Origin: Bacteroidota bacterium
GTDB taxonomy: Bacteria > Bacteroidota > Bacteroidia > SXHM01
Assembly (NCBI GenBank): GCA_947479755.1
Contig: CANKAM010000011.1
Coordinates: 20,488 to 84,487 of the forward strand
Direction of reading: 5' to 3'
Length of the DNA: 64,000 nucleotides
Of this stretch, positions 33,326 through 64,000 are shown piece after piece. The notes beneath the pieces were generated by a model that was not told the DNA's origin, did no database searches, and was given only the letters and a program-made list of their open reading frames with translations. The translations under genes and the position numbers were made by a program. Each line of letters begins with the position of its first letter. Positions within the stretch are counted from its first letter, which is position 1.

Positions 33326-33535
33326 TAATTTGCCGGCAAAGCCTGAGCGTGGGATGGCAAAAAGTCAGCCCGTGACGGCAAATTCTGGTGCAGGGACGGC
33401 AAATTCCCGAACAGTGACGGCACGGACTGAGGCCGGGAGGGCAAACCGCCACACCGGGAGAGCAAAAACTCAGCCCGTGATGGCAAAACCTCAGGCGGGG
33501 ATGGCAAAACCTCAGGCTGTGAGGGCAATGGGGCA
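33326..33535. repeat. Ten 21-bp tandem units in exact register (consensus GGCAAAnnnyCAGnCnGkGAn), bracketed by TTGCCGGCAA-type palindromes
   Basis: Units start at 33326, 33347, ..., 33515. Perfect 10-bp palindrome TTGCCGGCAA at 33321-33330, a 9/10 copy at 33260-33269, and TTGCCGCTAA at 33531-33540. Sits in the divergent region between the 31724..33196 and 33626..34369 genes. Confidence 0.7.
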
Positions 33536-33625
33536 GCATTTGCCGCTAAAAAGCACTCTTTTACGTTCATTTTATATATAAACCAATCAAACAATCAATA
33601 ATTAACCTAAAAAAAAACAGAAACC

Positions 33626-34369
33626 ATGGCAAAAGATTTTGTAAAAAGTAACGATGTACAATTTGTAGCACAACTTAACACCTTTAAAGCTAACCTGCCC
33701 TCTCATGCAATGTTATTTGGCTTAACACCTGCACAAATTGCTTCTGTGCAAGCCGATGCCGATTGGATGGCTTTTATAGTGCTGCGCAACAACGCTGCAC
33801 CCGGCTTTGCACAGGACTGGACAAAGCTAAAAGATCAGGTTCGCCACGGGGGCGATGGAAGTATTATTCCACCCTTCCCAACTCCACCGGATGTTGTTAC
33901 CCCACCAATGGGTACTATACAGCCCGATGTGGAAGGGCGTTTTCGCCAATTGGCAGCTCAACTGAAAGCAAACAGCAACTACAGCAAAGCTATTGGCGAA
34001 AACTTAGGTATTGAAGCAGATGAAACCAGCTTTGATGCCGGAAATTATAAACCCGAAGGCAGCGCAAAAGCGGTATTGAATGTGGTAACTATCAAGTTCA
34101 CTAAAAAAGGAGTGGATGGTCAGGCTATCTACAGCAAGGTAACAACAGGGGTGAGCACACTGCCCTCTACACCGGGCTCTCCGGCACCGGCTACGCTTAG
34201 TCAGTACACCAAAATAGCCATAGACTTCCATAGTCCTTATGTTGATAACCGTGCACTTACCATTGCCGGGCAGCCCGAACTGCGGGAATATTACCTGCGT
34301 GGTGTACTCAGTGATGCCGAGATTGGTGTACCCTCTGATATAATCAGAGTAATAGTGGGAACTATCTAA
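33626..34369 (+). CDS. Hypothetical cytoplasmic protein with a Pro/Thr-rich central segment (PPFPTPPDVVTPPMGTIQP)
   Basis: 247 aa. Good start context (aaaccATGgc). No signal peptide. No recognised family. Confidence 0.5.
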   Translation: MAKDFVKSNDVQFVAQLNTFKANLPSHAMLFGLTPAQIASVQADADWMAFIVLRNNAAPGFAQDWTKLKDQVRHGGDGSIIPPFPTPPDVVTPPMGTIQPDVEGRFRQLAAQLKANSNYSKAIGENLGIEADETSFDAGNYKPEGSAKAVLNVVTIKFTKKGVDGQAIYSKVTTGVSTLPSTPGSPAPATLSQYTKIAIDFHSPYVDNRALTIAGQPELREYYLRGVLSDAEIGVPSDIIRVIVGTI

Positions 34370-36691: not shown

Positions 36692-37888
36692 ATGAAAATT
36701 TTTATTATTATTTTATTTTTGCTGAGTTCCTTCCAAGCGTTTGCTCAAATAGATTGGGTTGTATATAATACTTCCAATTCTGGAATTCCTCACAATGTAG
36801 TTGAGGACATTACGTTTGATGCCAGTGGTAATATTTGGGTAGCAACCTATGGCGGTGTGGGGAAATTCGATGGGGCAAATTGGACTGCATATACCACCGC
36901 AAATTCTATTCTACCAAGTAACGTATGCTATTCGATTAAAGCTGATGCTGATACTATTTGGATTGGCTCAGTATATGGTTTAATAAAATTTGATGGCACG
37001 AATTGGACAAGTTATCCTTATGGATATGTGGTTTCAATGGCATTTGAAGAGAATGGAACGAAATGGTTTGGCGGGTATCAGACAGGATTAGTAAAATACG
37101 ATGGAAGTACTTGGACCCGATATGATGCTTCCAACTCTGATCTTACAGACAGTACCTATTATTCAATTAATATTGATAGTGTGAATAATAAATGGTTTGC
37201 TACCCCAGAGGGGGTATTCAAATTTGATGATATCGATTGGACACAATTTACTATAGGAAATTCTGATATACCCGGGAATATTATTGTAGCTCTTAGTATT
37301 GATGCAAATGATACGAAATGGATTGGGGTTGCAGAATTGGGCATGGGGCAATTTGATGATGTTATCTGGATCGGCTATGACACCCTCAATTCGGGGTTGC
37401 CTTCAAATTATGTGAATGCAGAAATTGCTTTTGATGAGAATGGTGATAAATGGATTGGTACTTCTACCAAAGGACTTGCATTTTTTGATAATACCACATG
37501 GACTACCTTTAATATGACGAATTCGGAATTACCATCAAATGCAGTCGAAGCAGTTTCAGTAGATAATGTAGGTAATAAATGGATAGGAACCTATGGTGAA
37601 GGTTTAGCGGTGTATCGTGAAAATGGGGTTATTCTATCAAACAATGATATTGCAAAGTCACAACCTGCAATTTATGTTTATCCTAATCCTGCAACTAATT
37701 ACTCTACAGTTGTAACTTCATTTAAGGGCACTTACCAATTGCAAGATATAACCGGCAAGGTATTGTTAACCGGCAGCGTAACTGCAACCAAGTTTAGTTT
37801 AGATATAAGCGCACTCAGCAAAGGCATTTATTTACTAAGCCTTTTTGATGGTGAGCAGCAGGTGAACAGGAAGGTGGTAAAAGAGTAA
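36692..37888 (+). CDS. Two-component-regulator-propeller-like repeat protein (NWT.Y...NS.LPSN.V..I..D..GN.WIGT) with a T9SS C-terminal sorting domain
   Basis: Signal peptide. At least seven repeats of about 45 aa with W-T-Y/F and WIGT motifs. The CTD is near-identical, at the DNA level too, to that of the preceding gene. Confidence 0.65.
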   Translation: MKIFIIILFLLSSFQAFAQIDWVVYNTSNSGIPHNVVEDITFDASGNIWVATYGGVGKFDGANWTAYTTANSILPSNVCYSIKADADTIWIGSVYGLIKFDGTNWTSYPYGYVVSMAFEENGTKWFGGYQTGLVKYDGSTWTRYDASNSDLTDSTYYSINIDSVNNKWFATPEGVFKFDDIDWTQFTIGNSDIPGNIIVALSIDANDTKWIGVAELGMGQFDDVIWIGYDTLNSGLPSNYVNAEIAFDENGDKWIGTSTKGLAFFDNTTWTTFNMTNSELPSNAVEAVSVDNVGNKWIGTYGEGLAVYRENGVILSNNDIAKSQPAIYVYPNPATNYSTVVTSFKGTYQLQDITGKVLLTGSVTATKFSLDISALSKGIYLLSLFDGEQQVNRKVVKE

Positions 37889-61605: not shown

Positions 61606-61932
61606 GGTTATTGTTTTTAGGTTGCACAAATATAGAAAAGTTTTAAAGCGAAGTATTAATTGGGTTTAAAGATGGTATTTATACACCTACTAAATTACAG
61701 CTTATGCAGGCGGTATTTGCCTTACACAATGTCCATACGTCAAAGGCTGCTGTTGCAATCAGCAACAGTCATTTAGCTTGAAATAGAATTTGTTTTTAAA
61801 AACCACCAATACCCATAAAGTTTAATATCACCTAAGATTATTAACCAACCACCCGTGAATATCATTTTTTGGTATCTTAAAAAAAGTTTATAATTTTGCC
61901 TTAACACGGTGTTAAAAATAAGGTGATTAATC

Positions 61933-62664
61933 ATGGATTACTTTGACAGAGACATGCAGCGCGTGATGAAGAGGATGAGGGAGAAGCTGAACCTTGGCAA
62001 CATAAGCCGGGGTAATGACCTTCATTTGCTGGAAGAGTTAGCTGCCACCTTTAATTTCTGCATTGTTTTACACCATCCCGGTTCGGTTGATGCCTTCTTT
62101 GCAAGCAGGCGTTTCTTTAATTTGCTTGGCAAAAAGAAAGGTGCAAGTGAGTATGTGTATGCCGATTATAATGAGGCATTTAAGCAAAGCAGCAATATGG
62201 CTTATCATGCCTTGTTTCTGCAACACTTCAGCACCCCTGCTGCCGACACCCACCGAGGCAGTTATAAGTTTAAAGATGTTAAGGCAAAGGTATTCTGGCT
62301 CAACTCCTGCTCCTGCCTTATGGATACCGGAACGGGTAACAAACCCATTATACTTACCCTGCTGTATCAGGCACAGCAGACCATGAGCACCGACCACCAG
62401 ATACTGAATGACCTTATCAGAGGTCTGGACTTAGATGAGCTGATGAGTAAAATCAATAAACTAAGCGACCGCGAACTGGAGGTATTTGAATACCTGGCAC
62501 AAGGCACCGATAAAAAAACGGCAAGTGATGAATTATTCATTTCGGAAGATACATTTATTACCCACCGTAAAAACCTGAGAAAGAAAATAGGCTCGCCCTA
62601 TAACGACAAACTGTTGCTCAGTTACTTATCCAACAAGTATTACCGCCTTTTACACAACCTGTAA
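61933..62664 (+). CDS. LuxR-family (FixJ/NarL-type HTH) transcriptional regulator with an N-terminal domain of unknown function
   Basis: C-terminal LSDRELEVFEYLAQGTDKKTASDELFISEDTFITHRKNLRKKIG is a LuxR-type HTH. No receiver-domain Asp pocket was recognised in the N-terminal 170 aa. Confidence 0.75.
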   Translation: MDYFDRDMQRVMKRMREKLNLGNISRGNDLHLLEELAATFNFCIVLHHPGSVDAFFASRRFFNLLGKKKGASEYVYADYNEAFKQSSNMAYHALFLQHFSTPAADTHRGSYKFKDVKAKVFWLNSCSCLMDTGTGNKPIILTLLYQAQQTMSTDHQILNDLIRGLDLDELMSKINKLSDRELEVFEYLAQGTDKKTASDELFISEDTFITHRKNLRKKIGSPYNDKLLLSYLSNKYYRLLHNL

Positions 62665-62676
62665 ATTACCCTTTTA

Positions 62677-62726
62677 AGGGTAGGGCAAGTAGGGTGCCAA
62701 GCCATAACATTACCCTGGAAAGGGTA
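62677..62726. promoter_or_regulatory. Two 16-bp palindromes TACCC-N6-GGGTA (62677-62692 and 62711-62726), 34 bp apart; candidate operator pair
   Basis: tacccttttaagggta and taccctggaaagggta sit immediately downstream of the LuxR-family gene and upstream of the 21-bp array. Confidence 0.35.
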
Positions 62727-62756
62727 TGCCTCTGCCCTGCTCTATGGTATTTCTTT

Positions 62757-62834
62757 GCGCTGTCAATAAAACTCACCCCCTACCCCTCTCTTTGAAATAA
62801 AGAGAGGGGAGAATGGAAAAGCAATTGACAGCGC
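62757..62834. promoter_or_regulatory. Nested inverted repeat: outer GCGCTGTCAAT/ATTGACAGCGC, inner CCCCTCTCTTT-GAAAT-AAAGAGAGGGG (62784-62809)
   Basis: A perfect 11-bp outer arm pair encloses a perfect 11-bp inner hairpin. Could be a terminator for the LuxR gene or a structured regulatory RNA/DNA element. Confidence 0.5.
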
Positions 62835-62982
62835 TCTTTGACATATTGAAAAACAACCGAAGACTTTAATTACAAGTCGTAAGAGCTTAACTGCTCAACC
62901 AAATACCTTGTTTACACTACACAATGCCTTAAACGGGCAGCAAAATACCTTACGGGCAGCACAGAAAGCTTTAATTGATGCA

Positions 62983-63213
62983 CACAAGACCTTAAATGCT
63001 GAACTTAAGACCTTAAGCGGTGAACTTAAGACCTTAAATCAAAGACTTAATTCATTAAATGCAAGACTTAAGACCTTAAACGCTGAACTTAAAACCTTAA
63101 CTGCAAGACTTAAGATCTTAAGCGCTGAACGCAAGACCTTAAGTGCAAGGTTTAAGACCTTAAATGCTGTACGCATGACCTTAACGCTTAAACGCAAGGC
63201 ATTTTATCAGTAA
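62983..63213 (+). repeat. Eleven 21-bp tandem units (core CTTAAGACCTTAAnnGnnGAA, each containing the inverted pair TTAAG-AC-CTTAA). Open in one frame as a leucine-zipper heptad array (LNAELKT x10) that starts at TTG 62908.
   Basis: Units start at 62983, 63004, ..., 63193 in exact register. Translation gives LxxxLxx heptads with L at the a/d positions. No ATG start; only a TTG at 62908. The ORF track lists it as a 101-aa ORF. Confidence 0.6.
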
Positions 63214-63347
63214 ACAGTAAACAATTGACAGTTGATATGGACTATGAACTGTGGACTATTGACTGTGACTACCGACCATGAATTACTAATTTAATTAAAC
63301 AACATAACTAAATAATAACTAATAACTAACAACTAATAACTAAACAA
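63214..63347. repeat. AT-rich low-complexity spacer: TGGACTAT(G/T)(A/G)ACTG x2, then (A)TAACTAA heptamer-like iterations
   Basis: tggactatgaactgtggactattgactgtgactac ... aactaaataataactaataactaacaactaataactaaacaac, immediately upstream of the ATG at 63348. Confidence 0.5.
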
Positions 63348-64000
63348 CATGGCAAACTATAAAATTCGTTGCAGACTAAATTATCACATCCTTAAAATTG
63401 ATGAGATAGATTTATTTGCCGTTATTATCCGTAACGGTATTTACAATAATCCGCTTATATTTTTAACACCTCCAATTCTTCAGGCTGCTTTTCAGCTGCT
63501 GATTGATGACTTTATTACCAAACGTGCAGCTTACAAAGCAGGGGGCAGTGCACAAAAAGGGCCTTATAACGAAGCTAAAATAGCATTGATGGCAGCCCTT
63601 GACAGCCTGTCGGCCTACGTTGACACGGTGGCACTGGGCAATGCCAATACCATTACCCTTGCAGGTTTTGTACCTACCAAGGGAAGCTCAACCCCTATTA
63701 ACCCGCCTACCCAGCCGCAGGGGGCAACCCTTAGCCGTGGCCTGCCGGGCGAGCTGTATGCTGATTGCGCAGCCGCTGCAGGGGTTGACGGTTGGGGCGG
63801 ACTGCTGATAGCCAACAACCCTATTCCCGAGGGTATGGGTATCAATGAGTTGGGGCAGATAGTATCATTTTACAATTCAACTCCTATGCCTATTCCGGGG
63901 CCTATACCTGCACCGGGCAGCATTCAGTTTATTCAGGATTTGAACAAAGCCCGCAGAAAAAAATTTACAGGTCTGCAAATAGGTGTTACCTACTACTTCT
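63348..64000 (+). CDS. Hypothetical cytoplasmic protein with Pro-rich segments (PINPPTQPQG, PMPIPGPIPAPG); 3' partial, runs off the window
   Basis: Open frame of 217 codons from ATG 63348 with no stop before the window end. Absent from the ORF track only because it lacks a stop in the window. Composition is protein-like. The overlapping track ORFs 63599..63808 and 63615..63845 are shadows. Confidence 0.5.

Follow-up and report, generated by a model that had tools for sequence, protein, structure and literature searches.

Plasmid iterons, such as those of pSC101, R6K, P1, and RK2, are sites of 17-22 bp with a spacing of about 22 bp. Partition centromeres may also be built from tandem repeats: sopC of the F plasmid consists of twelve 43-bp units with an inverted repeat in each, and parC of R1/pSK41 is another tandem-repeat centromere. 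The lux-box type operators of LuxR-family regulators are 16-bp palindromes near promoter elements. The curved downstream regulatory element of proU is bound by H-NS and relieved by counter-silencing regulators; H-NS-type silencers and homologs are not known in Bacteroidota. In contingency genes, repeats of variable copy number lie in the promoter or the 5' UTR, e.g., the tetranucleotide repeats in the leader of Moraxella uspA2.

In this study, we analyzed a 64,000-nt stretch of DNA from an uncultured Bacteroidota bacterium (the window, to which all coordinates refer), near the end of which an array of 21-bp units precedes the gene of a small protein with a fibronectin type III (FN3) domain. 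As in plasmid iterons, direct repeats with a period of about two helical turns adjoin an A/T-rich block; however, there is no Rep gene, DnaA-box cluster, or plasmid context here, the A/T-rich block reads as a translation leader, and arrays of this kind comprise 10-20 units as opposed to 3-9 in plasmid iterons. Like partition centromeres, the arrays are made of head-to-tail units of an integral number of turns with a dyad core, vary in unit number, and have a gene directly downstream. Unlike them, they occupy chromosomal loci, with several unrelated arrays per genome and no ParA/ParB/ParR genes, they lie 3' of a putative promoter, and their sequence turns over while the linked protein, which has no DNA-binding fold, is conserved. 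Two 16-bp palindromes beside a promoter element, co-inherited with an adjacent gene for a GerE-HTH regulator, resemble lux-box operators, but the N-terminal domain of this regulator is of no recognised autoinducer-binding type and the two predicted sites stand ~42-44 bp apart. The mode of action proposed below resembles that of downstream silencers such as proU, in that sequence-tolerant DNA 3' of a promoter would be read by its shape and counteracted by an upstream regulator, although those silencers are not tandem repeats and the likeness is drawn here from sequence alone. As in contingency genes, the tract lies between promoter and start codon and its unit number varies among strains; however, the units are 21 or 42 bp instead of 1-7 bp, they are dyad-symmetric, and the period, not the sequence, is conserved in the family. 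A literature search found no description of such arrays or of this regulatory layout.

Results

An initial annotation, made from the window sequence, had listed five elements downstream of a LuxR-type gene: a pair of palindromes, a nested inverted repeat, an array of 21-bp units that is open as a heptad-encoding frame, an A/T-rich block of heptamers, and an ORF that runs off the window. All of these were recovered where that annotation had placed them, except that the last ORF, which does run off the window, starts with the ATG at 63349 and not at 63348, a shift of 1 nt. The features of the locus, and of a second module in the window, are as follows.

61869-61898, + strand: promoter of the LuxR gene, TTG-N19-TAtaTTTG (exact match to TTG-N19-TAnnTTTG)
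61933-62664, + strand: gene of a LuxR/GerE-family regulator, 243 aa (ORF and Pfam GerE, E=3e-12)
62667-62682, no strand: TACCC-N6-GGGTA palindrome 1, TACCCTTTTAAGGGTA (exact match; identical in the ortholog locus L010)
62711-62726, no strand: TACCC-N6-GGGTA palindrome 2, TACCCTGGAAAGGGTA (exact match)
62750-62757, + strand: upstream -7-like box TTTCTTTG, then CGCTGTCAAT (recurring motif)
62757-62834, no strand: outer 11+11 inverted repeat around a REP-like hairpin (sequence reading)
62833-62854, + strand: conserved putative promoter box GCTCTTTGACATATTGAAAAAC (family-1 comparison)
62856-62982, + strand: degenerate or relic 21-bp units (register layout and alignment to L010)
62908-63213, + strand: incidental ORF with a TTG start, 101 aa (ORF list; not a gene)
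62983-63192, no strand: 21-bp array of 10 units, consensus CTTAAGACCTTAAATGCTGAA (TRF, register layout)
63193-63280, + strand: spacer after the array, containing short repeats of 7 and 14 bp (TRF)
63281-63348, + strand: G-free, A-rich translation leader with TAACTAA heptamers (base composition)
63349-64000, + strand: helical-bundle and FN3 protein, first 217 of 241 codons (ORF; sister contigs)
33353-34369, + strand: second module, with degenerate array, G-free leader, and 247-aa ORF (same design, other family)

The 21-bp array is far beyond chance, whereas the open frame through it is not. TRF called the array at 62971-63184 (10.2 copies), in agreement with a register of ten units from 62983 to 63192; degenerate AAnnCCTTAA units reach back to about 62920 (62920-62982), and 62856-62876 resembles a unit of the L010 type. 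The core CTTAAGACCTTAA, with up to two mismatches, occurs 13 times in the window as opposed to 2.2 expected, a count reached by 0 of 100 shuffles, and 11 of the 13 matches fall within 62878-63163. Alternating GCTGAA and GCAAGA halves give the array a 42-bp super-period. Downstream of it, TRF found CAGTAAA (x2.3) and TGGACTATGAACTG (x2.5) in the spacer. Unit number, which the initial annotation had suggested comparing among strains, does vary: the window array has 10 units and those of the sister strains L002 and L007 have 11, and another difference is of 5.7 vs 4.7 units.

The frame at 62908-63213 encodes 101 aa of LKTLNAE-type heptads, and it had been proposed that it could be a genuine coiled-coil gene, a proposal that stops within homologous arrays were to contradict. 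Such stops were found in all three + strand frames in 10 of 20 homologous arrays, and in all six frames in 8 of 20; arrays that are open encode unrelated peptides. Mismatches among the window units fall on codon positions 1, 2, and 3 in 9, 18, and 15 cases, with no third-position excess, and the codon changes comprise 5 synonymous vs 22 non-synonymous ones. The stops, the unrelated peptides, and the lack of codon-level constraint rule against the gene reading. Furthermore, not all array periods are multiples of three (41 in L020, 62 in L022), and the heptad leucine codons are the arms of the CTTAAG-type palindrome. The openness of the frame is no surprise, because any stop-free 21-mer repeated in tandem stays open. 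The ORF starts with TTG without the G-free leader that precedes the real gene, and Pfam and NCBIfam searches with it returned sub-threshold generic coiled-coil noise only. It was called as a gene in 2 contigs only, and is uncalled among the places listed in the look-up of the LuxR gene, which covered 22 contigs.

About 25 loci, from two protein families, share the module to which the array belongs. The order of this module is locus-specific regulator sites with a weak -7 box, hairpin, 17-nt box, array, G-depleted leader, and ATG; the array measures 200-450 bp with a period of 21, 42, or 63, the leader 45-170 nt, and the protein ~240 aa. Across 245 kb of loci, TRF called 21 arrays with a period of 21/42/63 (including one of 41 and one of 62), every one of which immediately precedes a family gene; the other 8 arrays have unrelated periods, and nearby intergenic DNA contains no such 21/42/63 arrays. 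Of 26 loci, 24 have their autocorrelation maxima at 21/42/63 (in L020 they are at 41/21/20), and higher-order periods of 42/63/84/126 are seen among the arrays, which persist across proteins down to 36% identity. The second module in the window has its array at ~33353-33530 (GGCAAAnnnTCAGnCnGTGAn), a G-free leader of 54 nt, and an ORF (33626-34369) for a 247-aa protein from a different family, the homologs of which also carry 21-bp arrays. No homology between the two protein families was found by hhalign, and their only similarity is a weak N-terminal one, via the L021 protein. In the neighbourhoods of 14 loci, no parA/parB or parM/parR genes and no conserved partner besides the FN3 protein were found. 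The array is very likely non-coding and one case of a conserved cis-architecture before small FN3-type proteins of uncultured Bacteroidota.

Sequence comparison indicates that the arrays turn over fast, their sequence being free while the period stays at 21/42/63: arrays of proteins that are 78% identical share 30% of 9-mers, those of proteins at 75% share 4%, and at 69% the sharing is at background level. All 18 arrays compared match their own reverse complement better than column-permuted controls do (≤2/200 permutations in 10 of them; z=3.7 for the window array), and 9 of 18 have an excess of Watson-Crick self-complementarity. Tested one at a time, only about half of the arrays have significant dyad symmetry, and template-switch mutation could also yield symmetry. 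In L016, the 21-bp register is kept while the core is inverted in the last three units. Some changes leave palindromes intact and look compensatory, such as TTAAG/CTTAA to TTAAT/ATTAA in unit 4 of the window array and, in L012, C|G to T|A. By folding energy, neither array strand is favoured as RNA (9/19; p=0.49). The + strand RNA of the window array is barely more stable than its shuffles; predicted + strand structure is absent from the window, L010, L013, and L030 and strong elsewhere, with L012, L015, and L027 folding well. In 16 of 23 arrays, the + strand is modestly skewed towards A over T (p=0.01), and the arrays slightly avoid pairing with the translation start region (13/17), no complementarity of the anti-leader type having been found.

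Between the regulator gene and the array lies the 17-nt box GTTCTTTGACATACTGG (family consensus at this site, GTTCTTTGACATACTGGAAAAC). Each of 18 family-1 loci has a single + strand copy of it, 360-580 nt 5' of the ATG, and the array is downstream of it in 18 of 18. A scan of 12 loci placed the exact 17-mer also ahead of phage tRNA operons, at 6-8 nt from the first tRNA, in 10 of them, and on the basis of this position we infer that the box is a strong promoter, with a transcription start predicted near 62845. As it lies downstream of this box, the array is probably transcribed as part of a ~500-nt leader. In L043 and L050, a G-free leader and the ATG come immediately after the box. Compared with the canonical sigma-A promoter, it keeps TTTG, has GTTC/GCTC for TAnn, and has no -33 TTG; a sigma-70 scan gave chance-level results, and sigma-54 and E. 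coli-type readings, compared by eye, misfit in their spacings. A position weight matrix scan for a second box between array and ATG yielded weak, non-significant matches only. By hand arithmetic, the distances from box to ATG look uniform both mod 10.5 and mod 21, with no helical phase-lock.

The 17-nt box also matches the unpaired 5' end (consensus GaUCUUUGACAUAcUUGAUAaaaac) of Rfam RF02956, the DUF2693 RNA of Bacteroidota. However, the alignment covers this 5' unpaired segment only, the helices of the family are absent, and the scores of 19.0 bits (window) and 28.2 bits (L016) compare with a gathering score of 81.3; the resemblance is one of promoter or 5' end only. Gathering and permissive Rfam scans of the window and 6 loci returned nothing above threshold. 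Further upstream, most family-1 loci have the motif cTTTGyGCnGTCAAT 5' of the 17-nt box. The upstream -7-like box lacks a -33 TTG and is therefore probably activator-dependent.

The GerE HTH of the LuxR-family protein occupies residues 176-220 (PF00196, E=3.3e-12, 46 bits vs a cut-off of 23.5). NCBIfam matches are confined to this C-terminal HTH, and neither Pfam nor NCBIfam detected a recognised autoinducer-binding domain in the N-terminal part. The promoter of the gene ends 35 nt 5' of the ATG at 61933; both this promoter and that of the host tRNA-Met gene agree with the Bacteroidota consensus TTG-N19-TAnnTTTG, in which the -7 box lies at -12..-5 (PMC9723704). TACCC-N6-GGGTA occurs three times in the window as opposed to 0.72 expected, the third match being at 37201. 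The centres of the two palindromes at the locus are 44 bp apart, and palindrome 2 ends 24 bp 5' of the -7-like TTTG box.

LuxR homologs are located upstream in 4 loci (window, L010, L030, L032), and in all 4 the LuxR gene is followed by two TACCC-N6/7-GGGTA-like sites 42-44 bp apart. Because gene and pair co-occur in this way, the pair is probably the LuxR operator, and the LuxR-family protein probably binds it, not the array. L010 has an ortholog of the window LuxR and is ~95% identical to the window over 62640-62767, yet with near-identical operators the two have unrelated arrays, so LuxR does not appear to be the array reader. The linkage of LuxR to the region, as first suggested, thus holds for the palindrome pair (4/4) but not for the module in general, as the gene is found in only 4 of ~25 loci with upstream sequence. 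Similarly, of the earlier suggestion of an operator or iteron array that is incidentally open, the non-coding nature and the incidental openness stand, whereas the role of LuxR as its reader does not. The adjacent regulators vary from locus to locus, and their sites are unlike the arrays.

The region 63281-63350 comprises 70 nt without any G, the longest such run in the window, and includes five TAACTAA heptamers (63309-63343). G-poor leaders (mean G about 0.07) precede the family genes in all loci. Initiation in Bacteroidetes, as outlined in PMC6847099, is SD-less and relies on unstructured A-rich leaders. Judged by its composition, the A/T-rich block is a G-free translation leader, as before every family gene. 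The protein that follows is 241 aa long in sister contigs and is predicted to consist of a helical bundle at the N-terminus followed by an FN3 domain at the C-terminus (AF2 pLDDT 86). Fold searches placed the C-terminal half with FN3 and the N-terminal domain with generic helical bundles only, sequence searches of the PDB found the FN3 domain alone, and no family in Pfam, NCBIfam, or PHROGs was matched. The family comprises about 150 clusters at E<1e-30. The protein is near neutral in charge, its model has no nucleic-acid-binding fold, and it was rejected as a reader of the array on account of its near-neutral charge.

Discussion

With some reservation, we favour a mechanism at the DNA level, in which a phased stack of sites would throttle transcription into the FN3 gene. 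Partly dyad-symmetric sites that repeat every two helical turns would all face one side of the helix, and such a stack may either curve the DNA or let a dimeric or architectural DNA-binding protein load cooperatively just 3' of the promoter. The stack would then throttle transcription by silencing or as a roadblock, the upstream regulator would counteract it, and the gain would be set heritably by the number of units. If periodicity and symmetry alone are read, units could be replaced by drift and homogenisation while the function is kept. The dyad symmetry, the lack of an RNA strand preference, and the register kept in L016 despite its inverted core argue for a DNA-level mechanism.

Some observations weigh against it. 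The only gene that is always linked to the array encodes a near-neutral helical-bundle/FN3 protein without a nucleic-acid-binding fold. The position of the array 3' of the promoter box in 18/18 fits an RNA role equally well, and the A>T skew and the avoidance of pairing with the start region are constraints typical of transcripts. Further points against it are the adjacent regulators, which vary and have sites unlike the arrays, the dyad symmetry that reaches significance in about half of the single arrays only, and the fact that H-NS-type silencers are not known in Bacteroidota.

It is conceivable, although rather doubtful, that the arrays represent a new class of cis-element, the 'phased array leader', in which the 21-bp period, the dyad symmetry, and a length of ~300 bp, and not the sequence, are the information, and which, set between a strong promoter and a G-free translation leader, is dedicated to at least two small FN3-type families in Bacteroidota. 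The reader of such an element could be DNA shape, a cooperative architectural protein, or a multivalent RNA assembly, and unit number would act as an evolvable dial of expression.

Alternatively, the functional form of the array may be RNA, either a part of the ~500-nt 5' leader or a processed species derived from the 5' UTR, whose multivalent short motifs or hairpins would bind a protein or determine how the FN3 mRNA is stabilised, processed, or translated; we consider this possible but somewhat unlikely. It is consistent with the array always following a box that in other contexts drives stable RNAs (phage tRNA operons, the 5' end of RF02956), with the + strand skew, the tendency not to pair with the start region, the well-folding + strand RNAs of L012, L015, and L027, and the compensatory-looking changes that keep palindromes in the window and L012. 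However, folding energy shows no consistent strand preference, + strand structure that ranges from none to strong leaves no common RNA structure, and a 21-nt period has no obvious rationale in RNA. Moreover, the arrays have no motif in common that would imply a global RNA-binding reader, and none of the Rfam matches reached its gathering score.

That the array is a neutral VNTR, i.e., slippage-prone DNA beside a strong promoter that has no function and inherited its 21-bp period from an ancestral array, is unlikely. Fast sequence turnover, copy-number polymorphism, and periods of 42/63/84/126, typical of satellite dynamics, would be expected of such DNA, and no reader protein was found. On the other hand, arrays have been kept in about 25 loci whose proteins are as little as 36% identical, as well as in a second protein family with no homology to the first; multiples of 21 are held with only two off-by-one cases, length is confined to about 200-450 bp, the dyad-symmetry bias extends to 18/18 arrays, and nearby intergenic DNA is free of them.

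It is very improbable that the array is an operator array for the adjacent LuxR protein or an iteron-type origin of a plasmid or phage with an A/T-rich unwinding block, even though ~21-bp units with a dyad core stand beside an HTH regulator gene and an A/T-rich block follows. The operator reading is contradicted by LuxR orthologs that have the same palindromic operators and unrelated arrays, and by the absence of a LuxR gene nearby in most loci. As for an origin, the iteron-like features, ~two-turn direct repeats and an A/T-rich region, are present, but the latter is the G-free leader found before every family gene. The initial annotation had raised a plasmid-type origin while seeing no Rep-like gene; the second point is borne out, with no Rep-like fold or family in the flanking genes, and the first is not supported, since the downstream protein is a helical bundle with FN3 and not Rep, and the context is chromosomal. 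Chromosomal genes occupy the window (64 kb) and contigs as long as 97 kb, in an order kept across samples. The candidate DnaA box quoted near 63375, TTATCACAT, lies within coding sequence, and no match was found in 62000-64000; with up to one mismatch, DnaA boxes number 22 in the window vs 19.5 expected, with none beyond 57995, and GC skew shows no switch. Least credible of all is a repeat-evolving coiled-coil micro-protein gene at 62908-63213, for although its one open frame has leucines at a/d and charged residues at e/g, was predicted by gene callers in two contigs, and is kept by the extra unit of L002 and L007 (as by any 21-bp indel), it meets the closed homologous arrays, the periods of 41 and 62, the missing synonymous excess, the leucines accounted for by palindrome arms, the TTG start without a G-free leader, and the sub-threshold database matches described above.

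From the point of view of annotation, a tempting false gene is removed, and gene callers do call ORFs on such arrays, on either strand. Non-coding DNA can apparently keep its period and symmetry while its sequence is replaced, and alignment-based searches, including Rfam-style models, are blind to elements conserved in period. The 17-nt box is a portable candidate for a strong promoter in a phylum with few genetic tools. The module also gives a lead on the ~150 clusters of uncharacterised ~240-aa helical-bundle/FN3 proteins, which are evidently elaborately controlled, often with a dedicated adjoining regulator. If the arrays are indeed read by geometry only, they would be a clean natural model in which to study shape readout and the tuning of expression by repeat number in bacteria.

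The hairpin between the two boxes is probably a terminator or insulator against upstream transcription. The arms of its outer inverted repeat, GCGCTGTCAAT (62757-62767) and ATTGACAGCGC (62824-62834), enclose an inner hairpin, CCCCTCTCTTT/AAAGAGAGGGG, at 62783-62809, and a terminator-like call was made on the - strand. The hairpin at the matching position in L010 differs from that of the window, and the inner element, CCCCTCTCTTTGAAA..., is dispersed, with three copies in L014 and one in L023.

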